A stretch of DNA of 64,000 nucleotides from IMG/VR virus record IMGVR_UViG_3300005613_000020, positions 32,885 to 96,884 of that record; one strand, written 5' to 3'. This document shows positions 30,328 to 50,482 of this stretch, one piece after another. The notes below the pieces were generated by a model. The model did no database searches. It was not told where the DNA came from and saw nothing but the letters and a program-made list of their open reading frames with translations. Both the position numbers and the translations under genes were made by a program. This DNA comes from a virus. The first letter of the stretch is position 1; every line of letters starts with the position of its first letter.

Positions 30328-31653
30328 TTACGCATTGAGGTCAGAGATTCTACCCTGAACGTCGATCCTAAGAGCGCGAAGTTCAGCCATCATATACAGA
30401 AGGCCACGGACCACCAAAGCGTCCGCATGGAAGTAATCCCTATTCTCGTAGTACTGAGTGGGAAGCGCAACCGCGATCTCAAGATAGTCAGTATCGAGAA
30501 CCATAATATCGGAACCAAGAACCGTACCAGAGTCATCAACGGACTTCATCTGGTCTGGGTCGGGAAGAATCGGAATGCCCATATAGGTTGAGAGAACAAG
30601 TCCAGTTCGGGTTCCAGGAAGGGTTCGCTCGTCGCCAACGCCAACCTGATACTCTTCGGTACCCATATAACGCTGTTGAGCCGACAGAAGTCGCTCCATC
30701 CTAAAATATTGATCCCAGCCCATTGTAATGAGCTTGGGTTCGCCACCAGCTTCGCGGATCTTCTGAATCTGAGTATCGATCATCGTGAGGGTAAGGTCTC
30801 TACCAGTTCCATCATTCCCATCGTAGTTTGCCAGAGCGGCATACCCACCAGCGGTTCTAGTTGTCAAATTGTAGCAATCGGGATTTACGGCATTGCCAGA
30901 TCCGCCAACAATCATCCCATCCTCGCAACAAATGTCGCCAAGGGAGGTTAGAGCGGCACGGGACCGTACAAAGACGGTATCGCCAGCGGCAATGGCCGTT
31001 CCAGTTGCAATGGTCACGGTTGTACCGGACACGTTGGACACGGCACGAGCGGTTCCATCAATTGCACCACCAGTCTCATCCCAAAAATCGACGGTATCGC
31101 CGATATGGAACTGGGAAGCGATTGCGGCCGAAGCGCATACAAACGTAGTTGTAGACCCGCCAGTTGCGTAGCATGCTGGGGTTGAAACCAGCTGCTGGTT
31201 AATATTCTTTACAAAGTCCCTCTCGCAAGCCTCTTGCTCGGTGGCGAGGATGTCCCCCATTCCGCCCGCAAGAGAATTAACAAAGATCGACTTCACCGGG
31301 ACGCCAAACGTTGCCGCAGGAATCTTTGGCAGCGAATAAACGCCCTCGTAGTTCGACACGTCAATGGTCGGAAGACTTCCGGTCTCTGTGACGGGGCGAA
31401 CCCTTTGGTCTCCACGGTCGGTTCTAAGAACCCAACCCGCGGTATTCCCCCACGGAACCTTCTTAATGGCATTGTAGGTGACCTTCTTATTATTAAGTGC
31501 GTCCCATACCTTGCGTCCGTAGGTCTGATTGAACGTCGAAGCTGCGGTTGTTAGGTAGGTCTGCTTTTTCAAGTAGTCCTCTCCAAAAACCTTGGTCTGT
31601 AGACCACGCTGACTTGACGCGATAAATTCAGCAATTCCTATTTCGTCAGACAT
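30328..31653 (-). CDS. Major capsid protein (HK97 fold) with inserted beta domain
   Basis: Follows scaffold; AAGGAG SD; ETGSLP, LTLTMID, YMGIPILPD, LDTDYL motifs; strong GC3 codon bias. Confidence 0.85.
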   Translation of the reverse strand: MSDEIGIAEFIASSQRGLQTKVFGEDYLKKQTYLTTAASTFNQTYGRKVWDALNNKKVTYNAIKKVPWGNTAGWVLRTDRGDQRVRPVTETGSLPTIDVSNYEGVYSLPKIPAATFGVPVKSIFVNSLAGGMGDILATEQEACERDFVKNINQQLVSTPACYATGGSTTTFVCASAAIASQFHIGDTVDFWDETGGAIDGTARAVSNVSGTTVTIATGTAIAAGDTVFVRSRAALTSLGDICCEDGMIVGGSGNAVNPDCYNLTTRTAGGYAALANYDGNDGTGRDLTLTMIDTQIQKIREAGGEPKLITMGWDQYFRMERLLSAQQRYMGTEEYQVGVGDERTLPGTRTGLVLSTYMGIPILPDPDQMKSVDDSGTVLGSDIMVLDTDYLEIAVALPTQYYENRDYFHADALVVRGLLYMMAELRALRIDVQGRISDLNA

Positions 31654-32147: not shown

Positions 32148-32882
32148 TTAGTCAAAATTCCATACTCCGCCGGGCATCTGAGTGTTTGAATCTTGGTTCA
32201 TCTTCTCTTGCATCCTACGGAGTTCCTTATAGCTTAAGTCTTTCATCTTCTCAACAGTCTCGGACTCGGACTCGTCGCCCTTTAGGATTGGCATGTCACC
32301 AGTTCCCAGGTCTCGACTCGTTGGACTATTAAGTCCCTTGGACTCCTTAAACCCTGCTTTGCGTAGTCTTTCCTCGACAGCCTTCTGAATCATATTCTCC
32401 ATGTCTTCCTTATCTTCTTCCTTTTCCTCTTCTTGCTTCTCCTTCTCCTCATCAGAGCCTTCCTTTTCAACCTTTTCCTCTTCCTTCTCATCCTCTTGCT
32501 TTTCTACCTTATCAGTTACATTACCATCATCAATAGGCTTTTGACTCTCTTCAGGCTTAGTATCTACCTTTTCTGAACCCTCTTCACTATCCGCGCCGGT
32601 ATTCGTCATTTCTGCGGGTACATCGGGACCAGCTTCCTTGAATAGATTAGGGTAGGTAATCTCTAGTGCCTTAATGAGATTCTTGACCATCTTCTCTTCC
32701 TTCTCTTCCTCTTCTTGTTCCTTCAACTCTTCTTCTTTCTTCTCTTCATCCGCTTCCTGCTTCTGGATTAGTCGCCCAAGATAACTATTCATAGTCTCAA
32801 GGGTTTCAGCAGTTGCAGACAAGGCCAATGTGTTGCCTTCAAGCTTCTTCTCTATTGCATCCACTCTCTCATCAATATCCAT
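32148..32882 (-). CDS. Capsid scaffolding protein
   Basis: E/K-rich coiled coil upstream of MCP; GGAGG SD. Confidence 0.8.
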   Translation of the reverse strand: MDIDERVDAIEKKLEGNTLALSATAETLETMNSYLGRLIQKQEADEEKKEEELKEQEEEEKEEKMVKNLIKALEITYPNLFKEAGPDVPAEMTNTGADSEEGSEKVDTKPEESQKPIDDGNVTDKVEKQEDEKEEEKVEKEGSDEEKEKQEEEKEEDKEDMENMIQKAVEERLRKAGFKESKGLNSPTSRDLGTGDMPILKGDESESETVEKMKDLSYKELRRMQEKMNQDSNTQMPGGVWNFD

Positions 32883-33159
32883 TAGATTTGACCTCCGTCT
32901 TTTTTTTGTTCTTCAACCAGGTTGGTCTTAGCCATCCGACCTGGTGATCTACTGCAATCTTTGCCATTGTTTCCGCGTCGCTTTTTCCTAGTGATTCTGC
33001 ATGTTCTAGTTCGTGATTCATTCCCATATGAAGTTGATGCTGATTTATCTTTGACCAGTCAACATCCAATTTGTCTCCAGTCTTTCTCGCGTCTTCTATA
33101 GAGAACTTTTCTTCCTTCTTCAGGCTTTTATACAACCTTAAAATGTTCTCTACATTCAT
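32872..33159 (-). CDS. DUF5661-like protein with atypical C-terminus
   Basis: LHMGMNHELEH...AKIAVDH motif; start taken at MNVEN. Confidence 0.6.
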   Translation of the reverse strand: MNVENILRLYKSLKKEEKFSIEDARKTGDKLDVDWSKINQHQLHMGMNHELEHAESLGKSDAETMAKIAVDHQVGWLRPTWLKNKKKTEVKSNGY

Positions 33160-34324: not shown

Positions 34325-37300
34325 TTAGCTTAGTTTCTTTTTTATCTCTTCAGATATAGTGTTTCCTATCTCTTCAAGATCTAAGTCATCAGGAATTTCA
34401 ACATGTATAGGTGGTAAATCTAAGTCTTTACCTGTTTCATCCTCTTCCCTTAGAATATCATCTATTTGTGGTCTAGTAGTAGATGCAGTAGCATCCTTCT
34501 CTACCTTGTCTCCCCACTTCTTTGGAACTTCTCCGTCCTTTACCTTATGCGTAGCAACAACATCATTATCGCCTTCCTTGAATTCCTCTGCATGTTTATC
34601 GCAGAACCAGGCTCTTCCTCTTCCATCGGCCCAAAGTAATTCCTTTGTAGGAGGTTCGTCACAATGCATACATTTCGATCTTGAGTATTGTTTCTCTAAA
34701 TCCTCATCTTCAGATTCCTCTTGTATTTCCGCAAGAGCATTCCATGCTTTTACTCCCTCTTCTCTAATCCTAGCTCCTCTAAATTGTTCTGCTAAATCAT
34801 CTGCTTGGTCATGGTTATTTGATTCCTTTAATACTGCATAAGCTATTTCCATATCGTCGAAGCCCATGCTAATAAGTTTATCAAAGGTTTCTTTGTCAAT
34901 ATATACTATATCAACATTCTTTCCCTTATTCTTAGCGTGTAAAGCCCTATTATGACCATCAACTATATTAATTTCATTATCACCCACATATCCGACAATT
35001 GGAGGCATATCTTCCGCGTCAGGCCACGACTCTTCAACGAACTCTAAATTGTGCTGATCAGATTCTCTGAAAACTAGATTATTCGGATTTACGTAGTTTT
35101 CCCGCACTTCTCCTCTCGAAATATACGTTTTCCTATCAGGACTTCTCGTAATTTCACCTCTATTATATTCTACATTTCTCTTCTTTGGTCTTATCCACCT
35201 CCTTGTTTCCTCCTTCCATTCAAGTCCAGTTCTTGGTGGGGGTCCAGGAGGACCGGCTCTCACTACTAAATCCTCCTCTTCCGATGTTGTTGGAACATAT
35301 TCAGGACTCTTTATTATCTTTTCTCTATCTGTGTCGGGAGTTGGTTTATCTAATCCCTCTTCATCTTGTTTACGCTCTAGCTCATACTCTTCTGGAACTA
35401 GTTCTATCTTCTCTATTTCTTCTTCCTGCGACTTTTCTGGAGTGGGTAGTGCAGGCCCTACAAAATCAGTTTGTAGTTTCTTCAATCTCAAATCACCCTT
35501 AACGATATCAAGATATGTCTTGCTTCTTTCTTTTCTGTCGCCTTTATAGATAATTGCATTGTTGTCAGATCCTTGGATCTTTCTTACATTCCATCCAGGA
35601 AACTCCGCAGCAAGGTCTACTATACTATCCCAATGATGTCTGTGATCTCCTTGAAGTCTTTTGCCTAGTGGAACGATATGTGCTACATTTTGTCCTGCTA
35701 CTCTTTCGCTTTCATCCAATGCCTTTTGTATGTCCTCGATATGTTCTAATACATGCATTGAAATAATCGTGTCAAATTCATCATCTTCGTATGGAAGTCC
35801 CTTACTGATATCACAATGATCTACAACGATACCATCTTCCTCTACATCCTTTGTTACCATCTCATCAATATCAACTCCGCGAACCCAATAATGAGAATTC
35901 CGTAAAATCTGTAGTAAGCTACCGTTTCCACAACCAAGCTCTAGAACCTTATCGCCTACAATACTTTTCATCAACTCTGCCATGTCAATTATAAGGGGTT
36001 CAGTTGTTGAACCATATCCCCTATCAACCTTCTGTATTACTTCTTCTCCATTCACTTGTTTCAGCATACCAAACTTCTCGCAAGGAACTAACTCAAGCTT
36101 ATATAACGGTATGTGCTCTTTGTTTTTGTCTAGGGAGCTAATATAATTTAGCCTGTTCTTCTGTTCTGGAGATATCTCTCTAGCTAGCCTGACCTTTACG
36201 GCTTCCGACAGCCATGACTTGTCATCTGAACGAATTAATATATCTATCTTACCGTTCTTCCCCTTCTCTATCATGTCGCCAACCATTGATACAGTACAAT
36301 CTGACAACTCTAAAGTCTTTTTAGGAAATACATTGACTGCATCATCTAGAGAAATTATCTCAAGATCTGTAACCTTTTCTTCTTCCTCTGCCTTATCTCC
36401 CTTTATAAGGTTGAAATGAGCCTTTTGGTTTGCTGGATTCTGGACAAAAGAAATCTCAGAAAGTTCTAGTGCTGTAACCTTAAGGTAGCTTCCTCCCCCT
36501 GCTTTCTTAACATCCTCTTTCTCTGTGGCTATTCCAGCAATTGAATAAGATCTAATGCTACCATTCTTGATCTCTTCCCTTACCTTCTCTGGTATCCTTC
36601 CGCTACTATTTATCTCAGAAACCACAAACAATCCTTTGTCTGATATACCTGACCTATAGATATTTCCTTCTTTATTAATGAATAGGGGAATTATCCATCC
36701 TACCTGAGCATCGCTATTATGAAATACAATACCCTTTCCACAATATGTGTGATCTTTGTCTACATTTAGATCATATACATATCCATCATAATGATTTTTT
36801 CTTACAGACAATATCTTGGTTCCATTAGAAACTTGTAGACTATCTTTGGATAACAACAACTCAGTTAAATATGCCTTCCATTTATCCCTATTAAAATTCG
36901 TTTTTCCATGACATTTATCACAAAGAGTTATTAAATTAGATGAAGTAGAATTTTCTTTATCATAATCAATATGATGTACATATAATGATGAATCAACAGA
37001 ATTATTACTAGCACCACATATCATACACCTATTATTATCCCGATTTCGTGTTTCTTTTTTTACCTCTTCGGTAAATCCTATATAAGTAAAATCGATAGAA
37101 TGGCCATCTATATAAGAAGGATTATTCTTTCCTGAGAATGCTAAAGACCTACATTCTTTAGAGCAAAATACTTGGTAGCTCCGTTTCCTTGAAATTTGGA
37201 ATTCCTTCCTGCAATATTTACAGACTAATACCTTAGGTCCTTTATATCTTGGATTCTTAATTCCTGAGACTGAAAATGACAGTCTATTTTTTATCTGTAA

Positions 37301-38023
37301 TGCTTTATCTTTACCGTATATTTCAAATAATGATTTTCCCTTTCTTATATTTGCTGTTATTTTGCTGGGATTTTCTCCTCCTTCTTTATTATCCCACCAA
37401 GGTGTGTGTCCTATAGCATATTCTCTACTCATCTTTAAAATAACATCATTTTGTCTTATATCTTTAGCGTATATCCATCCCCTTTTAGTCAATACCCTAT
37501 GCCTATCGCTAATCCTAATAGTTTCTCCATTATCTAGTTCTAATAAGTTAATGTCTGACACATACCTATATTTATATACATCAAGAACCTCGCATCTTCT
37601 TCCCTCAGAAGAAATGACAAAATCTCCTATTTTGATATCCCCTATTTCCTTATATTTATTATCAAAGCTTCTATCTCCGCGTACTTTAATTTTGGTTTCT
37701 GGGGCAAGGCAATGCATTACAATACCATTTCTAGTTCTGAAGTTCTTCATGAACTTAGAAAACGCTTCCTTCAAAGCGTCTGTTGTAATCAAATGACCTT
37801 GCTTGTCAATAACTTCAACTGAAGCATATCCACCTACGATTAGTGGCTCTCCCTCAAATCCTCTCTCTTTAGCCATATCTAAATACTTTTTGTTGTTAAA
37901 GTATCTATTCAATGTCAATAACTCAGCGTGGGAAATAATATCAACATCAGGAGCAAGCTTTTGTGCTTCGTATAGTGCTAGATATTCTTCAATGTGTTTT
38001 CCTATATCTTTCTTCTCTGCCAT
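34325..38023 (-). CDS. HK97-family prohead protease polyprotein: protease (intein-split), NTase-like, class I SAM MTase, PPGPPP module, ParB/Srx-like, Zn finger
   Basis: GYASVEVIDKQG, VMH, SYSIAG, LSEISFV..PAN; VG...DILIR; VLELGCGNG, GVDID, HVLEH; PPIV...IVDGHNR; CMHC...FCDKH. Start taken at MAEKK. Confidence 0.85.
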   Translation of the reverse strand: MAEKKDIGKHIEEYLALYEAQKLAPDVDIISHAELLTLNRYFNNKKYLDMAKERGFEGEPLIVGGYASVEVIDKQGHLITTDALKEAFSKFMKNFRTRNGIVMHCLAPETKIKVRGDRSFDNKYKEIGDIKIGDFVISSEGRRCEVLDVYKYRYVSDINLLELDNGETIRISDRHRVLTKRGWIYAKDIRQNDVILKMSREYAIGHTPWWDNKEGGENPSKITANIRKGKSLFEIYGKDKALQIKNRLSFSVSGIKNPRYKGPKVLVCKYCRKEFQISRKRSYQVFCSKECRSLAFSGKNNPSYIDGHSIDFTYIGFTEEVKKETRNRDNNRCMICGASNNSVDSSLYVHHIDYDKENSTSSNLITLCDKCHGKTNFNRDKWKAYLTELLLSKDSLQVSNGTKILSVRKNHYDGYVYDLNVDKDHTYCGKGIVFHNSDAQVGWIIPLFINKEGNIYRSGISDKGLFVVSEINSSGRIPEKVREEIKNGSIRSYSIAGIATEKEDVKKAGGGSYLKVTALELSEISFVQNPANQKAHFNLIKGDKAEEEEKVTDLEIISLDDAVNVFPKKTLELSDCTVSMVGDMIEKGKNGKIDILIRSDDKSWLSEAVKVRLAREISPEQKNRLNYISSLDKNKEHIPLYKLELVPCEKFGMLKQVNGEEVIQKVDRGYGSTTEPLIIDMAELMKSIVGDKVLELGCGNGSLLQILRNSHYWVRGVDIDEMVTKDVEEDGIVVDHCDISKGLPYEDDEFDTIISMHVLEHIEDIQKALDESERVAGQNVAHIVPLGKRLQGDHRHHWDSIVDLAAEFPGWNVRKIQGSDNNAIIYKGDRKERSKTYLDIVKGDLRLKKLQTDFVGPALPTPEKSQEEEIEKIELVPEEYELERKQDEEGLDKPTPDTDREKIIKSPEYVPTTSEEEDLVVRAGPPGPPPRTGLEWKEETRRWIRPKKRNVEYNRGEITRSPDRKTYISRGEVRENYVNPNNLVFRESDQHNLEFVEESWPDAEDMPPIVGYVGDNEINIVDGHNRALHAKNKGKNVDIVYIDKETFDKLISMGFDDMEIAYAVLKESNNHDQADDLAEQFRGARIREEGVKAWNALAEIQEESEDEDLEKQYSRSKCMHCDEPPTKELLWADGRGRAWFCDKHAEEFKEGDNDVVATHKVKDGEVPKKWGDKVEKDATASTTRPQIDDILREEDETGKDLDLPPIHVEIPDDLDLEEIGNTISEEIKKKLS
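36716..37711 (-). mobile_element. Intein (332 aa) with HNH endonuclease in prohead protease
   Basis: CLAPET...HRVLT...VYDLNV...FHN|S; internal RDNNRCMICG, VHHIDYDK, LITLCDKCH. Confidence 0.92.
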
Positions 38024-38025
38024 GA

Positions 38026-38256
38026 CTACAACTCCAATTCCCGAAGGTCTAACCAATATAGGTCTTTAATCATATCCCAGCGGGTTCCTTTCAATTCCTC
38101 TCCCTTATGATACGGGAATACCGGCATTCCGCTACTAGTAGCTAGAATTACTCCGTTAACTCTAACAGAATTAAATGGATCTTCAACTTTTTCATAGTAA
38201 TTCCAGTCCAAGACTAGAAAATCAACCTCTCCGTTTTCCTTACTCCTATAACGCAT
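38026..38256 (-). CDS. Hypothetical protein
   Basis: Coupled TAATG start. Confidence 0.6.
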   Translation of the reverse strand: MRYRSKENGEVDFLVLDWNYYEKVEDPFNSVRVNGVILATSSGMPVFPYHKGEELKGTRWDMIKDLYWLDLRELEL

Positions 38257-38967: not shown

Positions 38968-40929
38968 TTACTCTTCTTCCGGTACGCCTCCGTACTGATT
39001 AAATAACTCTGATGGAACTGCTAGTGCGTCGTCATCGTCTTCTTTGACGAGTTCGAACATCGACCTTTTCTGTCTCTTATTACGTCTCTTTTGTCCAGCC
39101 TCATATGAATCATTTGAGTCATAAAGGAATTGGAACTCTTGCTCATCTAGAAACCTATAAATTCTAGGAATAGGAACAAAAAATCCCATCCAAGTTACAA
39201 CGTCTGTTCCAAACCCAAGCTGCTTAACTGTTACTCTTGCTGGAACACCAATAAATTTACCACCTTCCTTAGTATAAACAGATCCACCTGAATTATGTAC
39301 CAACACGCCATCAGCAAAGAAGTTATGAACTCCTTCTATTTCTAGATCATATACATATTCCTCCTCGCATTCTTCCACACTGTTAACCTTCTTATACACT
39401 AAATCCGCTGGCAAACCTGAGTGGTCTCCTCCTACATAGCAATTCTTGCTTTTAGTCTTATTAGGATAAGCAGAAAATGCATATGTAGTTGTATTGTAGC
39501 TGCACCCATTCACCTCGACATCCCTAGTTCTAGTACTAATATTTGATACATCCACTCCAAGATGTATAAACAACATTCTTATCTTTTTGATCATTGTGTC
39601 GTTTACAGCCTCAAAAACCATATCTTGATTCTTGTTCAAGTGACCATCAGCTGTCAAATAGCCATCAATAAATTCCCGCATATCGTTATCAGGCAAAGAC
39701 ATCACCCAGTCTGGAATATCCTTTGTTCTGGAAGCTCCTGTAAGACCAGCCTCTACCAATATTTCGTAGGCATCCTTTCTGTATATTGATAGAGTTCCTC
39801 CCTTTTCCGAAGCACTATTAAATGAGGGCTTGTAACCAAATACATTCTCGAAAATGCTCTCTAATCTACTTCTTGGATCATCGCTATAACATGCCACAGA
39901 AATTTCATATCCATCACCGTCTCTATTCCTAGACCAACCATCCCCAAGATAATACCCACAAAACCATATGAAATCTTTTATATTATCGTTGTCTTGTGTT
40001 CCGAGAAGCTGGAATAGATTTATCCCTTTCCTAGTTGTTCTTTCTGGTAGCCTGTCCAAGCAAGCTATGGTATCTCCGTTAACAATCTCATTGGCTGGAA
40101 CCCATTTTACTACATTGTGTTTTTTACCAGACCAATCACTAAAAGACTCTACTTTTGCTAGTGGGTGATTTTCAGAACATCTTATAGTTCTTCCCATCGT
40201 CTTTATATCCAAAATCTTCTTCTTGCCCGAGTTTATTGCGCGTTTTACTGTGTGTTTGCTCATCCCAGCACTATGTCCGTATGACCAAACGGTATCCCCT
40301 TCTACCACTTCGTCTATTCGCTTAACCCTACCATCTGCCATAGAAACAAGGGATTCTCCTGGCAAACAATTACCAAAGATCATGGAAGCATTACACATCC
40401 AATATATTTCTTCTTCAATGTATTCCTGCAAATACGTTACATGCCCAGGATTAGCAAATGGTTCATGGAGTAGTGATGCTCCGCATGTGAATATTTCAGT
40501 AAACATCTTAATCTCGTCTTCTGCATCCTTCGGCCACAAATCAGCCACATAAGGATACTTTCTAGGGGTATCGAGCTTAAGTAAAGCCAAATCATGATTC
40601 TTATCATAAGCAATAATATCAGCCATGTGGGTATTGGTTGAAACAACTCTACTAAGATCAATGTAATCAAAAATATCAACACTGACCCTAGATTTTACTT
40701 CTTTCTTGACCTTCTTCTTTATAATTGAATCCCAATCCTCAACCGCCTTTACAGCATCTGCAATAACGTGATGGTTGGTAAGAACAAAAGTCTGGTATTC
40801 ATTTGGGTCTCCTGGATCCTTTGACTTTCTAGCTTCTGAATAAATAATAGTACCACTTCCTCCAGAACTTTCTAGCCTTACTCTACATGTGGGGTACAAA
40901 ACCTTCTCGTGCAATTCCTTCAAATCCAT
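38968..40929 (-). CDS. Trypsin-like (S1) serine protease interrupted by an intein
   Basis: GSGTII, LTNHHVI (His), HDLALL (Asp), GN|SGG (Ser) after splicing. Confidence 0.9.
   Translation of the reverse strand: MDLKELHEKVLYPTCRVRLESSGGSGTIIYSEARKSKDPGDPNEYQTFVLTNHHVIADAVKAVEDWDSIIKKKVKKEVKSRVSVDIFDYIDLSRVVSTNTHMADIIAYDKNHDLALLKLDTPRKYPYVADLWPKDAEDEIKMFTEIFTCGASLLHEPFANPGHVTYLQEYIEEEIYWMCNASMIFGNCLPGESLVSMADGRVKRIDEVVEGDTVWSYGHSAGMSKHTVKRAINSGKKKILDIKTMGRTIRCSENHPLAKVESFSDWSGKKHNVVKWVPANEIVNGDTIACLDRLPERTTRKGINLFQLLGTQDNDNIKDFIWFCGYYLGDGWSRNRDGDGYEISVACYSDDPRSRLESIFENVFGYKPSFNSASEKGGTLSIYRKDAYEILVEAGLTGASRTKDIPDWVMSLPDNDMREFIDGYLTADGHLNKNQDMVFEAVNDTMIKKIRMLFIHLGVDVSNISTRTRDVEVNGCSYNTTTYAFSAYPNKTKSKNCYVGGDHSGLPADLVYKKVNSVEECEEEYVYDLEIEGVHNFFADGVLVHNSGGSVYTKEGGKFIGVPARVTVKQLGFGTDVVTWMGFFVPIPRIYRFLDEQEFQFLYDSNDSYEAGQKRRNKRQKRSMFELVKEDDDDALAVPSELFNQYGGVPEEE
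39292..40368 (-). mobile_element. Intein (359 aa) with LAGLIDADG endonuclease
   Basis: CLPGES...SENHP...VYDLEI...VHN|S; GYYLGDG and FIDGYLTADG. Confidence 0.95.
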
Positions 40930-44507: not shown

Positions 44508-47270
44508 TTAATCTTCCTCCCTTTGGTTCTTCTTGTCTGCGTTGAAGTCCCTAAAAGCATCCTCCTCTAGCGGTTGTTTTGATGTACTTGTTTCATGTGG
44601 CATATTAGCAGGATGAGGCGGATGTCCGTCATGTGAATGGTATGTTACTCCTTTCTCAGTATGTGAGTTTTCCTCCCCACTTCCCGGTGGTGCATATTCT
44701 AATCCTTGCTCTCCACCTTCTCCTTCATATTCCTCATACCCTCCTCCTAGTCCTCCCATCATTCCACCCATTTGAGACATCTGCTGTTGCTGTTTTTCTT
44801 CTTCTGTCATTTCAGATACCTTAAAATCAATATCTTCAATTCCAGAGCTTTCAACCAACTCAACCTTGAACCCCATTTGCTGTAGCTGCATTGCTGTCAT
44901 TGTCTTTTGTTGCATGAATTGGGCTCTAGCCTGTTCAGACTTCTCTTCAGGATTCTTAAGAAGTAACTTCCATTCATTAATACCAAAATGATCTAACAAC
45001 CAAGGAAATATCTTATCATTGAATCTCTTTTGGTCTGATTCCACAACACGACTAGTCACAACTAATTGCTGGGTATTGCTAACCACTAAATCACCAGTAG
45101 CAATAACAAATGTATGATCTGATGTTTCAATATCATATACCCAAACCTTGTCAGAATCATCTCTTACAACAATCTTCTTAATTTCGTTTCTTGGTATTAC
45201 TCTTCTACTTGGTCTAGTAAGGATATAAACTGGGTTTTGTTTTTCACTTTCTGGTATATCGTATGCTAGGGATGTCTCGTAACCAAGAGAATTGCATAAA
45301 TACCTTACTCCAGCTATAAGAACAGAATCAACACTCTTCACTTCCCAAGCGTTTTCTTTTCTGCCATCTCCTGCGTAATAACCGTCAATAAAAGCTCTCT
45401 TTACTTCGTCAGTACCATTCAATACCTCCATAGGTACCTTCTTAATATTATACGAAATCTTCTTCTTTCCACCACGCCCGTATTTCTGATCATATTCGCT
45501 CAAGCACATTCTGCGGAGTTCGTTTACAATAGATTTTCCATATATAGTAAGCCTAGAAATTCCCCTGTACTTCTTTATAGTAGTTTTCTTCAAAAATCTA
45601 TCTTCCACTGCTTTTTTCGCTCTCTCAAGGAGGGAAACGTCTATATTAGTCCAATTTGCTCCTGCCTTATTGGAATAAATGTCTCCTTCAGCACACCACA
45701 GCCCTAGCGACCATGCAAATTCCTCTGATATATCGCTGGAAGAATCAACTGTACTAAGCCTGTTTGTTTTGATCCTTGTACCAACTTCAAAATCCCTAGC
45801 GTCTAACCATAAACCGTCTTCGGTTTTCATAGCATGATTTCCTGTGATGTTTACAATACCGTCTCCAGATATAATTGATCTTATTTCGTTTATGTTTCTG
45901 TGCCTATACGCTCCGTTTATATCTGACCAACCGCCTTCAGTCCATACCTCAAGATTTTTTGGTGTTTTCCTATACCAAGTATCCGAATGCTCCTTATACA
46001 ATGATGCAATAGGTATAATGTCTAAATATTTGCCGTCTACTCTAACATAGATAGGAGTTTCTCCTGTAACAGACTGAGTTGCAATACCACCTGAAGTTTC
46101 TTGTGCTGACATCCAAATCGGAGATACACCCCACATAGCAGCAATTCTATCCCGAACATCATTCTTGATCGGAAGATAATCCGTCTCTAGTAGATTGTGA
46201 AATAGCTTAACGAAATCAACACGACCTCTTGATCCTTGTCTTGCTGAATAAGCAATCATAGGCATGTAATCAGGATCAACACGCATCTTTGCTTCTATGT
46301 TTGCTCTCTCCCTTCTAAGACCTTCGGGATCATCAGTAGCTACAAGAAGCATCCCAGCAGGCAACTTACGTTCAAAGAAATATCGGTAAATAGTCTTGTC
46401 CATACCCACTAGTGATAATATCTTGTCATACAATGTAATTAAAGGGGAAACTCCAAATGTCTCCATAACAGAAAACTTGCTTAGATGTAAAACCTCTTCC
46501 TCAAGAAGGTATATTGGATCGGTTCCCTGGTGATAGTATATCCACATAACAGGAACTAAATCCGCTTTACATTTCTTGCATTTGCCTTTTTTTGGTTCCT
46601 TCTCATCTCTATGAAAGTAACATGTAAATGTCTTATTCTTTGGAAGTCCCTTATCATCCAAATCTAAATCCATCATTGCAGGATGAAGAACACGAATTTC
46701 TTTTGGCTTGCTCATTACTTTGTTTCCTGCATTAATATATTCCTTTCTAACATAAAGGAACGCATCATCTGCCCAGTTTAAGCAATCCTCGTACGATCCG
46801 AATAATTCGTTTAGGGATTGTCCAAATATGTTCGCATCTTCCATAAAGGGGGTAAGCTTGTCTTTCTGCTTTTCATCGGGTTTTCTAAATTCTTTTTCTC
46901 CACATTTTTCGCATTCCTCAACCACTTTCTGGTATTCAGACCCACACTTCTCGCACTTAAGTTCAAATTTAGGAGACCAAATATACCCTCTCCTAAATAC
47001 CTCATTTCTAATAATCGAAATTGGGCTACGAACTTCAGCTACAGTTAGATATAAACTCCATAAGTCTAATAGAAGATGTCTTCTATATCCAACTCTTTGC
47101 TGAATCCACGCATTAGTGAATCTATCAGATCCTAACGCCTTCGGAGTATACTTACTACCTTCCTGCTTAGACATTTGATCAAAAAAATCTACAAACTGAT
47201 CTAGTTTGTGCATCTCTGAATATTTGTGTGTAACTCCAGGAACAAAGTCTGATAATTTAGCCATATCCAA
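44508..47270 (-). CDS. Portal protein with Zn-ribbon insertions and an intein
   Basis: After TerL; DDAFLY, FGVSPL, YFFERKLPAG, IAAMWGVSP; CEKC x2. Confidence 0.9.
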   Translation of the reverse strand: MDMAKLSDFVPGVTHKYSEMHKLDQFVDFFDQMSKQEGSKYTPKALGSDRFTNAWIQQRVGYRRHLLLDLWSLYLTVAEVRSPISIIRNEVFRRGYIWSPKFELKCEKCGSEYQKVVEECEKCGEKEFRKPDEKQKDKLTPFMEDANIFGQSLNELFGSYEDCLNWADDAFLYVRKEYINAGNKVMSKPKEIRVLHPAMMDLDLDDKGLPKNKTFTCYFHRDEKEPKKGKCKKCKADLVPVMWIYYHQGTDPIYLLEEEVLHLSKFSVMETFGVSPLITLYDKILSLVGMDKTIYRYFFERKLPAGMLLVATDDPEGLRRERANIEAKMRVDPDYMPMIAYSARQGSRGRVDFVKLFHNLLETDYLPIKNDVRDRIAAMWGVSPIWMSAQETSGGIATQSVTGETPIYVRVDGKYLDIIPIASLYKEHSDTWYRKTPKNLEVWTEGGWSDINGAYRHRNINEIRSIISGDGIVNITGNHAMKTEDGLWLDARDFEVGTRIKTNRLSTVDSSSDISEEFAWSLGLWCAEGDIYSNKAGANWTNIDVSLLERAKKAVEDRFLKKTTIKKYRGISRLTIYGKSIVNELRRMCLSEYDQKYGRGGKKKISYNIKKVPMEVLNGTDEVKRAFIDGYYAGDGRKENAWEVKSVDSVLIAGVRYLCNSLGYETSLAYDIPESEKQNPVYILTRPSRRVIPRNEIKKIVVRDDSDKVWVYDIETSDHTFVIATGDLVVSNTQQLVVTSRVVESDQKRFNDKIFPWLLDHFGINEWKLLLKNPEEKSEQARAQFMQQKTMTAMQLQQMGFKVELVESSGIEDIDFKVSEMTEEEKQQQQMSQMGGMMGGLGGGYEEYEGEGGEQGLEYAPPGSGEENSHTEKGVTYHSHDGHPPHPANMPHETSTSKQPLEEDAFRDFNADKKNQREED
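45075..46073 (-). mobile_element. Intein (333 aa, Ser-initiated) with LAGLIDADG endonuclease
   Basis: SVTGETP...TGNH...VYDIET...VSN|T; LGLWCAEG and FIDGYYAGDG. Confidence 0.92.
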
Positions 47271-47665: not shown

Positions 47666-50482
47666 CTATTCCTCCTTCCATTCTCCTTCTTTTTTTACCC
47701 ACTTGGAACCACACATAAGACACTTTCTCTTCTCTGCTTCGTCTGGGGTAACTCTAAGAGCACCATTACGATATATGTATTCTCCATTCTCACATCGGCA
47801 ACATACTTCGATTGGTGGTTCTTTCTTATATGTCAGCTTGTCCTTCATTATCTTTTGGACATCTATACTATTATACCCCATTCCAAAATGTTTCTCAAGT
47901 AATGATGCTTCTTTGGTGGGTCCATATTCATCCGATGGTGCTGTTTGCAAATTCCCTATTTCAGTAAACTTGTTTGAAGAACCTTCATAGAAACAAAGAG
48001 CTAGAGAGTCTCCTTTGTCGGGAGATTTAAGACCCCTCTTCTTCATATCTGACTTACTCTCAATAGCTAGCTGACCCCTTGGATTGTAAACATATTTTAT
48101 CCTGGTAATCTGCTCTATCAAATCTGTGTCATTAGGAATTCTTATCTCTTTGTTTTTGAACTTTAGCCGAAGATTCCAAAATATTTCCGCCCTAAGATTT
48201 GCAAAATGCTCTGAATCAAATGCTCTCTCAGCAACATTTACACCACACACATCTAGTTCTAATTGGTTTAGCCTATCTACTACACCAGCACCTATTCCAA
48301 TAATATCTATATTCTTGTGAGTAGGGTTATAATCACTTATAGCACTCATCATACGACCAACGGTATACATAGTGTCCTCTTGTGACCATTCCTGTATTTC
48401 TGTGACTACTTCGTCTCTTCTAGCTGTTAATACACTGCTATCGTCACCAAAACGGGCTATATCAAGACCTAGCCCTACTACAGGATCTTCTGGGGGAGTA
48501 AACTCATCTAGGCTACTGTATACGGCCCTTTCCGCCCAAGCCAATGGTATCAGTGTGTCTACTGTATTAGTTGGAAATTCTCCTTTTACACGAACTTGGT
48601 AAAGAGGGCTCTCAATTCCCCAATCATAAGCCATCTGAGCAGCCCATTTAGGAGATACCAAATATGGTCTAGGCAATACTGAATCCCCTAGAAGATTCTC
48701 CCAAGAACCATCTAGTATGTTCTCCTCTGTAATTCCAAATTTAGCAAAATTAGGTGTATCATAAGCACTTACATGATATGTTTTGTACGCTTTGCTCTTG
48801 AAACTATCTCCAAACTTTGTAGCCTCATCCGTAGGATTTCCAATTAAAAGAAGCTTAGATGTTTCTCCAGCAGCTATGATACCTTCGATAGCCTCATAAA
48901 TAGGAACTTCAACACCAGAATTTCCAGACCACATGCAATATCCATTTCTTCTAGTTAATATAAGATGATACGGAGGTACATTAACGCAATACACATTTCC
49001 TTCATAGTGTATAATATCTATTTCTTCTTTCTTAACTACAAAATTTTTCTTTCCTTTCAGCCTGAGTACTTGGTAATGGTCTTTCGATGCTTTGGTTTCT
49101 TTTCCCCGAATATTCTTCTTCGTACCTTTTTTCACTGCTACTCTATAGCTTGAATCATAACCTAATTTCAATAGCATTTCTTGTATATCGTCCCTCATCT
49201 TGCTAGAAGAAGTACAATAGACAATAACCCCGTTACCATTGTCATAACCATCACCCATAGCAAAACTATTGAGAAAAGCTTCTATTATATCTGGTGTTGC
49301 GTTTTTTATTTCTTCAGGAACATATTTATCAATTGATCTTCCATACTTACTTAATTCCAAAACTAATTGTTTAGAACCTATGGTTATCTTATTGTGTTTC
49401 TTACGCTCATTAGGATAAAATCCTATGTTATTTATAGAGTCAACTATTCTATCCCAATTAGATCTATTTTTGGTATAACTCTGATTTATAAACGCTGTAT
49501 AACCGTCACTAGAACAACACCCCTCGGATAAATACCATCCCATAAATACAGCCCAATTTTTCATGGAAATCTTTTTTTCTGTATAGTCGATTCCTCTTGT
49601 TCTTGCTAACTCTTTCAACACTTTAGTATCCTGTCTCGTTCCAATCCAAGAGCATTTCTTATCTATCTTAAATTGAGGACTACTTATATCCTTCATGGGC
49701 TTTAATTCCCATTTTTCTTTCTTTGTTAATGGATTTGAAATCCACATCTTATGACTAGGAGTAACGCAAAAATTACGACCCGGCTTTTTACATTCATACA
49801 TATCACCGTTATACGGATATATATAATACTCTTCGGGTTTCTTAAAAAATGCCACATTAGTTATCGGATTCTTTGTCAATACTTCATCTTCTTCTGTTAA
49901 ATCACCAAATAATTTCCATCCGTGATTAGTTAATATCTCTGTGTCGCAGCTATGACAGGCTTCGTCCACGATTACGAGAACATTGGTATTATGAAATCCT
50001 TGAAAGGCCACCAAATTATGCTCATCTGTTGAAAACCCTATTCCAAACCACTTCTCCTTATCACTCATATCAAGTCGTGTAGTAAGTAGTCTACCTCCTA
50101 AAGGTTTCCTTGCTTTATGATAAAGCGAAGCTATTTCATTCCATAGGATCTCTCTAACCTGTCTTCCTGTTGGAGCAGTAGTTACTACAGTTGATGGCCT
50201 ATACGTATGAAGGAAATAGAGAACTACACAAGCTGCTAGGTTTGTCTTACCAATAGCATTACATGACTTTACCGATACTCGTTCTTCTTTGTCAATTGCT
50301 CTAACTATTTTCTTTTGCTCTTCCCAAAGGCTTATACCTAGAACTTCTTCAACAAACTCTACAGGTCGTCCTCTATAACTAGAATAGTCAACATCAGATA
50401 CCTCTCCAAGCTCTAAAAAGTCAGCTAACTTCTCAAATCCAGTAGATACTGATACAAGACTACTTTTCTTCACATACGTCAC
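47666..50482 (-). CDS. terL: Terminase large subunit with intein and C-terminal Zn ribbon
   Basis: SCNAIGKT Walker A, VIVDEA Walker B, IGNP, GLDIARFGDD and SPDKGDS nuclease motifs. Confidence 0.95.
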   Translation of the reverse strand: MTYVKKSSLVSVSTGFEKLADFLELGEVSDVDYSSYRGRPVEFVEEVLGISLWEEQKKIVRAIDKEERVSVKSCNAIGKTNLAACVVLYFLHTYRPSTVVTTAPTGRQVREILWNEIASLYHKARKPLGGRLLTTRLDMSDKEKWFGIGFSTDEHNLVAFQGFHNTNVLVIVDEACHSCDTEILTNHGWKLFGDLTEEDEVLTKNPITNVAFFKKPEEYYIYPYNGDMYECKKPGRNFCVTPSHKMWISNPLTKKEKWELKPMKDISSPQFKIDKKCSWIGTRQDTKVLKELARTRGIDYTEKKISMKNWAVFMGWYLSEGCCSSDGYTAFINQSYTKNRSNWDRIVDSINNIGFYPNERKKHNKITIGSKQLVLELSKYGRSIDKYVPEEIKNATPDIIEAFLNSFAMGDGYDNGNGVIVYCTSSSKMRDDIQEMLLKLGYDSSYRVAVKKGTKKNIRGKETKASKDHYQVLRLKGKKNFVVKKEEIDIIHYEGNVYCVNVPPYHLILTRRNGYCMWSGNSGVEVPIYEAIEGIIAAGETSKLLLIGNPTDEATKFGDSFKSKAYKTYHVSAYDTPNFAKFGITEENILDGSWENLLGDSVLPRPYLVSPKWAAQMAYDWGIESPLYQVRVKGEFPTNTVDTLIPLAWAERAVYSSLDEFTPPEDPVVGLGLDIARFGDDSSVLTARRDEVVTEIQEWSQEDTMYTVGRMMSAISDYNPTHKNIDIIGIGAGVVDRLNQLELDVCGVNVAERAFDSEHFANLRAEIFWNLRLKFKNKEIRIPNDTDLIEQITRIKYVYNPRGQLAIESKSDMKKRGLKSPDKGDSLALCFYEGSSNKFTEIGNLQTAPSDEYGPTKEASLLEKHFGMGYNSIDVQKIMKDKLTYKKEPPIEVCCRCENGEYIYRNGALRVTPDEAEKRKCLMCGSKWVKKEGEWKEE
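48920..49957 (-). mobile_element. Intein (346 aa) with LAGLIDADG endonuclease, just after Walker B
   Basis: DEA|CHSCDTEILT...VTPSH...VYCVNV...WSGN|S; GWYLSEG and FAMGDG. Confidence 0.93.

Follow-up and report, generated by a model that had tools for sequence, protein, structure and literature searches.

The gene analysed here lies in a 64,000-nt stretch of DNA (the window), positions 32,885 to 96,884 of IMG/VR record IMGVR_UViG_3300005613_000020, a complete record of 96,884 bp, with direct terminal repeats, of an uncultivated tailed virus; the genes are on the minus strand. A single open frame (34325..38056) encodes a prohead protease of the S78/HK97 type, split by an intein, followed by a nucleotidyltransferase (NTase)-like segment, a class I S-adenosylmethionine (SAM)-dependent methyltransferase (MTase), an acidic linker, a PPGPPP-W module, a ParB/Srx-fold domain, a zinc module and an acidic tail, in this order (Table 1). 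All residue numbers refer to the TTG-started version of the frame, P0001. After excision of the intein, about 900 of the 1232 residues of the precursor are left, and within them at least two functionally disparate domains (protease, MTase, ParB/Srx, zinc module) are joined inside a head gene module. Because portal, MuF-like, scaffold-like and major capsid protein (MCP) genes surround it, the gene is the head-maturation protease of this virus; a search of the virus genome for a second S78 protease found none. The polyprotein was scanned for domains with Pfam, PHROG and NCBIfam, and folds were assessed with AlphaFold2 (AF2) and Foldseek.

Table 1. Coordinates in the window of the gene, its modules and the neighbouring head genes. 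Residues are those of P0001 or of the protein named; an arrow marks a predicted point of cutting.
Feature	Position	Strand	Residues	Remarks
Whole gene	34325..38023	minus		likely start ATG 38023, residue 12 of P0001; GGAG 8 nt upstream; precursor 1232 aa
Protease N-extein	37712..38023	minus	12-115	ends at conserved His115; PF14550 at 77-116
HNH-type intein	36716..37711	minus		C116...H446-N447, +1 residue Ser448; 332 aa, directly after His115
Protease C-extein	36401..36715	minus	448-552	S503-Y-S505-I-A-G; ends F-N-L-I-K552↓G; PF04586 at 473-551
NTase-like segment	36092..36295	minus	588-655	conserved unit with the MTase in relatives (unit 586-853)
Class I SAM-dependent MTase	35519..36004	minus	685-846	motif I LELGCGNG
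Acidic low-complexity linker	35264..35497	minus	854-931	starts after LDIVK853↓G, includes KIIK916↓S
Lys/Arg-PPGPPP cassette	35183..35269	minus	930-958 (module 932-958)	VVR933↓AG-PPGPPPRTGLEWKEETRRWIRP
ParB/Srx-fold domain	34715..35104	minus	985-1114	D-G-H-N-R
Zinc module	34487..34690	minus	1123-1190	C1129-x2-C1132 ... C1152-x2-H1155
Acidic C-terminal tail	34328..34486	minus	1191-1243	sequence only
Trypsin-like protease	38968..40929	minus		PF13365; LAGLIDADG intein at catalytic Ser
Portal	44508..47270	minus		contains intein; sole motif match M-S-K35↓Q (33-36)
Large terminase	47666-50482	minus		split by intein; tblastn matches in two pieces
Acidic scaffold-like protein	32148..32882	minus		6 motif matches vs 1.6 expected
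MCP, SU10-type	30328..31653	minus		PF17236; L28-K-K30↓Q31
595-aa protein P0002	26471..28258	minus		three K↓[SQ]-(G/A)-PPGPPP-type cassettes

The initial annotation had read the gene, from its letters alone, as a prohead protease that carries enzymatic cargo and releases it by self-cleavage. Its first element, an HK97-type maturation protease, was confirmed by a match to PF04586 (28.9 bits against a cut-off of 21) and one to PF14550 on the N-terminal part; the score for TIGR01543 (24.4) stays below the equivalog cut-off of 59. The two S78 protease matches cover separate pieces of the protein (Table 1). The intein was recognized by profiles for the splicing domain (PF14890, 4.9e-13), the HNH endonuclease (PF01844) and the C-terminal region (TIGR01443, at 426-448), and its 332 residues of the 1232 were absent from the initial annotation of the gene. 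It is missing from P0006, a homologous fusion protein described below, and from about 45 further relatives, the gap being precise; P0006 reads MH/TDTQVGW at the site (slash at the insertion point). His115 and Ser503/Ser505 of the SYSIAG motif are kept in at least 95% of 39 non-identical relatives, and His115 is the probable catalytic histidine and Ser505 the probable nucleophile, both assigned by position only. P0276, from the same protease clade, has a different intein of about 350 aa that occupies another site (…VIAWGP/ACL…FFTGN/SVEVID…), so inteins have entered this protease at least twice.

When residues 566-1243 were searched exhaustively with HMMER, the extension behind the protease fell into modules; each of these is found alone in numerous proteins, many of which have lengths of 1000-4500 aa. 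The class I SAM methyltransferase assigned earlier is solidly upheld by profile and fold: PF08241 (Methyltransf_11) matches residues 705-787 with 1.4e-14, AF2 models about residues 685 to 846 with confidence, and every Foldseek match is a class I MTase. The family conserves H768, E771, H772 and a later histidine. The idea of a Hen1-like RNA 2'-O-methyltransferase, which came from this H-x-x-E-H...H arrangement and weak Hen1 matches, was dropped to a lead, human HEN1 ranking 43 among generic MTases.

The minimal NTase proposed for the segment ahead of the MTase was not confirmed. In the family alignment, relatives follow the pattern hG[GS]-x9-11-D-h-D-h (GS...DIDI), and this protein has GD...KIDI and a lysine for the later aspartate. 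The predicted local distance difference test (pLDDT) score of the segment is 45-60, too low to read a fold; PF01909 (NTP_transf_2) gave nothing in the virus genome at E≤10, the match to LPD15 is weak (E about 0.1), and look-ups of the NTase-like and zinc segments in the ESM Atlas gave no usable match. The name NTase-like is used as an unproven label, and this copy is probably inactive. The NTase-like and MTase unit also occurs in P0009, P0012, P0013, P0017 and P0021, where an ATP-dependent DNA ligase domain comes next and, in some cases, an ADP-ribosyltransferase (ART) or a C-terminal XkdF protease as well; the ligase partnership hints at a role of the unit in modification or repair of nucleic-acid ends.

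From residue 847 the pLDDT of the AF2 model drops below 50, and the acidic linker found there is without homology in the HMMER search. The PPGPPP...W module that follows was borne out, with three copies in the neighbouring 595-aa protein and recurrence in many polyvalent proteins, where it co-occurs with generic ART, Nudix, Topo IB and N6/N4 methylase domains. For the ParB/Srx-like domain the earlier call stands at the level of the fold but not of sequence profiles. In an alignment of 14 sequences D-G-H-x-R, P..L.F.E..Q and other positions are invariant and the Asn of the former is nearly so; the AF2 model built from this alignment has a pLDDT of 91.7, and its top Foldseek matches are all ParB, Noc, pNOB8 ParB-N, PadC or sulfiredoxin (probability about 1.0, E 1e-3 to 1e-2, template modelling score 0.40-0.48). 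By sequence, neither the domain nor 13 homologues matched any Pfam family at E≤1, ParBc and ddrB-ParB included, and a profile search against PDB sequences returned no ParB; the domain is not a member of the ddrB-ParB family.

The C3H zinc module was confirmed in an alignment of 38 homologous modules, of which 37-38 keep C1129, C1132, C1152 and H/C1155, the fourth ligand position being His in 30 and Cys in 8; the conserved tetrad is a good signature of a zinc site. The same module is found in P0005, a 1693-aa polyvalent protein with ART-PolyVal (PF18760) on another viral contig (L005:6236-11317, plus strand, IMGVR_UViG_3300025030_000090), which combines a CCA-adding enzyme, HD, the zinc module, ART-PolyVal and Nudix. 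P0005 has an inter-domain peptide of its own, repeated thrice (…PKKIHEVVHRGG..F.R.R.I.V.PEE-like), which may be the counterpart of the PPGPPP-W module, and a 139-aa open reading frame (ORF) just upstream of it resembles the C-terminal half of the MTase. The acidic C-terminal tail of the window protein could serve to bind the capsid.

The fusion of protease and cargo in one ORF is genuine and recurrent, as comparison with relatives shows. The intein-free protein P0006 (920 aa, on an 89-kb contig) is collinear with the window protein over protease, NTase-like segment and MTase at 56-70% identity, with PF04586 and PF14550 matches that span an unsplit protease domain. Behind its MTase come K↓TA-PGPPP, a region that looks like GNAT, K↓SA-PGPPP and a region without assignment. 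An MCP, P0156, that is 83% identical to that of the window has 89,312 bp as its longest contig; P0006 and P0156 probably come from one virus, the closest relative. On the 90.9-kb contig L010, whose MCP is 36% identical, one protein contains MuF, K↓QG-PPGPPP, an ADP-ribosyltransferase and a C-terminal S78 protease with an HNH intein, and in P0013 and P0021 the NTase-MTase unit and the ATP-dependent ligase domain precede a C-terminal XkdF-type protease. The protease is thus N-terminal in the window protein, P0006 and P0276 and C-terminal in L010, P0013 and P0021. In about 45 more distant relatives (MCP 56-60% identical) the intein-free protease bears a non-enzymatic, Cys-rich extension of 200-800 aa. 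The expectation that homologous proteases would carry variable cargo is borne out by P0006, L010, P0013, P0021 and these distant relatives, and the cargo modules themselves recur independently in giant multidomain, bona fide polyvalent proteins with ART-PolyVal, Nudix, Topo IB and N6/N4 methylase domains.

The extensions of the distant relatives (L017-L090), whose protease gene lies downstream of the MCP gene, have the motifs SC.DGSCL and GI.CG.C.YF…C.LY and conserved EHHQLLREYGFPSE and PPW.VNEAG; a counterpart of these extensions was sought in the window and none was found.

Candidate self-cleavage sites had been proposed at seven junctions of the polyprotein, each a hydrophobic residue, any residue and Lys followed by a small or polar residue, and at like sites in the MCP (LKK↓Q), the portal (MSK↓Q) and the scaffold. 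All of these exist, but one of the seven, LMK↓S (K697), lies inside the folded MTase and is not a junction. Comparison within families, with data that had no part in defining the motif, says more, and it supports the motif at four kinds of place. The protease domain ends in the family pattern A-x-F-[DE]-[IL]-[LI]-K-[SA]: K552 is present in 38 out of 38 relatives, the next residue is S, A, G or E, and similarity then collapses. The MCP has L-x-K-[QAS] at residues 28-31: of 121 homologues, 120 share K30 and 110 share L28, and position 31 is Q, A or S. In the portal, K35 is kept in all 17 relatives as [VL]-M-K-[SA] and is followed by a variable, gapped stretch; the portal N-terminus may be a propeptide. 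Finally, [LIVMF]-x-K sits 2-5 residues before PG.PP in 43 of 59 bona fide PPGPPP modules, which were taken from protein matches, IMG/VR and metagenomes with an anchor that contains no Lys. A control window 8-11 residues upstream gave 10 hits among 63 raw matches, several of which are an h-x-K-A-R-G-V-P variant; several other modules have a Lys with a non-canonical P3 residue or this variant farther upstream. The sequence ahead of the K-PPGPPP site is unrelated between instances, and several cassettes follow an N-terminal leader of 10-30 residues. Degenerate DNA patterns served to find modules beyond the protein matches, and out-of-frame GC-rich DNA and an unrelated repeat family, which made up most of the metagenome matches, were filtered out. 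In other head proteins the motif is enriched in the scaffold (6 matches against 1.6 expected) and depleted in the portal (1 against 5) and the trypsin-like protease (0 against 3.3).

The HK97 protease cuts its own capsid protein at K103/S104 (PMC10275583). Because of this precedent and the comparative conservation, Lys-directed processing is considered likely, at K552 and before PPGPPP (Arg933); at K30 of the MCP and K35 of the portal it is plausible. The proposal of self-cleavage at hydrophobic-x-Lys has in this way gained independent support at the family level, at the protease end, in the MCP, in the portal and before PPGPPP, but it failed the test of enrichment at domain boundaries.

That test and several other observations weigh against processing and delivery. 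Over the spliced polyprotein as a whole the motif [ILVM]-x-K-[SAQGD] is over-represented, with 14 matches against 5.6 ± 2.3 in shuffled sequences (P=0.0004), but this comparison is circular, the motif having been derived from this very protein. When linkers were delimited by HMMER envelopes and AF2 confidence, without regard to the motif, they covered 28% of the sequence and contained 6 of the 14 matches, which is no significant enrichment (binomial P=0.18; Fisher test matched for K, P=0.40). Half of the matches lie inside folded domains, 7 matches beyond the listed sites being in the protease, NTase-like and MTase domains. Individual junctions fare poorly as well: the site ahead of PPGPPP in the window protein is Arg933, not Lys; LEK↓Q (K1122) and VEK↓D (K1187), which flank the zinc module, have the Lys in 10 and 13 of 38 modules; and MLK↓Q (K666) is not conserved in the closest orthologue, P0006. 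A structural role could account for the conserved lysines, conservation in the MCP extending over the first 30 residues, and helices that are amphipathic and rich in Lys naturally show the h-x-K pattern. On the side of the cargo, the first and third expected carboxylates of the NTase-like segment are Lys, and at least part of the cargo may accordingly be non-catalytic. Cutting and delivery both stay inferences.

Weighing these points, we somewhat favour an S78 prohead protease with a string of polyvalent-type cargo that would be carried into the procapsid, cut after Lys or Arg and relieved of its cargo there. The variable, non-enzymatic C-terminal extension of the relatives would be replaced here by the NTase-like and MTase unit and the PPGPPP-W, ParB/Srx and zinc modules. 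Splicing would remove the HNH intein between His115 and Ser448 and restore the protease fold; the insertion site is established by the intein-free relatives, and a gating role is what we infer from it. The protease would then co-assemble into the procapsid and bring the cargo along, as the encapsidation of HK97-type proteases and the occurrence of protease-scaffold fusions suggest. It would cut after Lys (or Arg) at [LIVM]-x-K↓[small/polar], K552↓G and R933↓A being the best-supported sites by family-level conservation, and would trim the MCP (K30↓Q) and the portal (K35↓Q) at the same motif. Two pieces of about 300 aa, NTase-like plus MTase and PPGPPP-ParB-Zn, would be freed and kept in the head; for this release we see about even odds. 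The pieces would probably enter the host with the DNA and modify nucleic acid or sense or degrade nucleotides early, a suggestion made by analogy only, with T4 Alt, internal proteins, P1 Dar and polyvalent proteins. We also consider, as a tentative and rather doubtful extension, that [LIVMF]-x-K↓x-(G/A)-PPGPPPRPGLxW..T(H/R)RW(I/V)RP could serve Lys-directed prohead proteases as a portable signal of where to cut, dividing capsid-delivered polyvalent effectors into units and acting as the breakpoint at which viruses exchange cargo domains; the Pro/Trp mini-domain left on the released N-termini could aid retention or ejection, and in this virus the intein would keep the protease, and with it all loading and cutting, off until splicing.

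The extension might instead stay uncut, as an internal head, scaffold or anchoring protein or as enzymes that act on DNA in or at the capsid during packaging, the lysines being structural. The failed boundary test fits this, as do the apparently inactive NTase-like part, the 200-800-aa non-enzymatic extensions of the same protease in relatives and the virion RNA polymerase of N4, which is packaged unprocessed despite a peptidase domain (PMC5512222). On the other hand, conservation ends exactly at K552↓[SA] in every one of the 38 relatives, close relatives swap cargo in cassettes bounded by K-PPGPPP modules, and MTase motif I and the ParB DGHNR are intact; we regard an uncut extension as unlikely. 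It is more improbable that the Lys cuts are made, alone or shared with the S78 protease, by the adjacent trypsin-like protease of chymotrypsin fold. This PF13365 enzyme does lie within the head module, is conserved near the MCP in at least six relatives and is free of the motif, as fits a self-resistant enzyme. Yet three independent architectures join PPGPPP cargo directly to an S78 protease, the S78 protease of HK97 is itself known to cut after Lys, and a naive trypsin alignment places Ser rather than Asp six positions before the catalytic Ser, with no clear Lys pocket, which is a weak argument.

A fusion that serves co-expression only, with the MTase, ParB and zinc domains acting late in the infected cytoplasm, cut or uncut, and never packaged, would agree with the generic nature of class I MTases of this type. 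It is made quite improbable by the position of the gene in the head module, between portal/MuF and scaffold/MCP, by the recurrence of its modules in polyvalent proteins with MuF and ART, a typical kind of virion-delivered effector, and by the encapsidated nature of prohead proteases, known in general from HK97 gp4. That the long ORF is an assembly or frameshift artefact joining separate genes is barely credible: nothing beyond its unusual length speaks for this, and the collinear protease-NTase-MTase fusion on the independent contig of P0006, together with analogous fusions in L010, P0013, P0021 and P0276, led us to reject it.

Iyer, Burroughs, Anand, de Souza and Aravind predicted in 2017 that assemblin-like peptidases in polyvalent proteins process those proteins during virion assembly, and described this peptidase as 'always' C-terminal (PMC5512222). 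The general idea is thus already published as a computational prediction, and the window protein resembles such proteins in that one polypeptide from a virion gene module joins disparate enzymatic domains (MTase, ParB/Srx, NTase-like) to a prohead-type peptidase predicted to process it. It differs in that its protease is N-terminal, is the only S78 protease detected in the genome and carries an intein, and in that none of the hallmark Pfam families of polyvalent proteins (zincin MPTase, ART-PolyVal, ddrB-ParB, LPD1-40) is significant, the weak LPD15 match being the only one; its zinc module, however, is shared with P0005, which has ART-PolyVal. Like P1 DarB/DdrB it has methylase-type and ParB-type domains, which in P1 are head-packaged and act on incoming DNA (PMC5512222); unlike them it has no ddrB-ParB profile match in its ParB domain, no zincin peptidase, and a small Methyltransf_11-type MTase in place of a DarB-like adenine methylase with helicase. 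New are the arrangement of an N-terminal sole protease with enzymatic cargo, the intein placed immediately behind the conserved His, P0276 showing another insertion site, and K-PPGPPP as a conserved boundary of cargo exchange between close relatives; no description of the K-PPGPPP cassette was found in PMC5512222 or in full-text literature searches. Capsid entry and cutting of polyvalent phage proteins have been predicted since 2017 and rarely tested.

In HK97 gp4, P2 gpO and lambda C/Nu3, an N-terminal serine protease is taken into the procapsid by its C-terminal part and digests itself after assembly. The protein described here shares with them the N-terminal serine protease and, presumably, with HK97 the cleavage after Lys (PMC10275583). 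Their C-terminal part is a targeting tail or scaffold, whereas here it is a chain of enzyme-like domains. In phages of the T4/phiKZ type, many head proteins share one short motif at which the prohead protease trims them, and enzymes such as the ADP-ribosyltransferase Alt are packaged, cleaved and injected. Their cargo has genes of its own and relies on N-terminal targeting peptides for recruitment, whereas here it is fused; their cleavage motif ends in Glu, not Lys, and their protease belongs to the T4 gp21 type. The systems to compare on this side are T4 gp21 with the internal proteins and Alt, and the prohead protease of phiKZ/SPN3US with its ejection proteins (PMC10052503, PMC7411985, PMC9026906).

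The locus and its relatives offer a model that can be tested by mutation, with one protease, a simple P3-P1 motif (MCP, portal, protease end, cassettes) and natural cargo variants at the same breakpoints. If the proposal is true, the Lys-PPGPPP cassette would help to annotate delivered effectors in metagenomic viruses and might serve to bring foreign proteins into capsids. Head maturation may be under a further level of control, by the intein behind the probable catalytic His.

The head genes around the polyprotein comprise, upstream, the large terminase, the portal and the trypsin-like protease, each with an intein, and a MuF-like gene, and, downstream, the scaffold-like protein and the SU10-type MCP (Table 1). 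The best match of the terminase (39% identity) is a Caudoviricetes virus whose record gives Methanosarcinales as host. At least six relatives (L031, L034, L035, L051, L054, L064) have the trypsin-like protease a few kb away from the MCP and free of the intein; the head module of this virus group thus includes two different proteases. For the MCP, metagenomes gave more than 1,200 homologues and IMG/VR gave 530 loci, the latter found with the MCP alignment as query, as the single sequence found nothing, and 50,697 deposited phage genomes gave no match.

The neighbouring protein P0002 matched no family in Pfam and NCBIfam. It contains two near-identical cassettes, K↓SG-PPGPPPFAGAEWHEETRRWRH, a third, diverged one, EK↓QA-PGSPPRQGLVWCELTHRW, and a K↓QGPPGG stretch, and is probably a second processed, multi-unit head-cargo protein. 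Searches of the loci with a 4-row alignment and for homologues of residues 45-95 of P0002 yielded no further PPGPPP proteins. The repeat family picked up in addition by the DNA patterns used to gather PPGPPP modules, and unrelated to them, reads …VIRVGPPPVVVEH-PGPPPERGFVW.GGYHRWDG.RYV; it comes from soil and peat metagenomes and is present in loci L092, L109, L112, L126, L140, L143-L146, L149, L153, L156 and L168.

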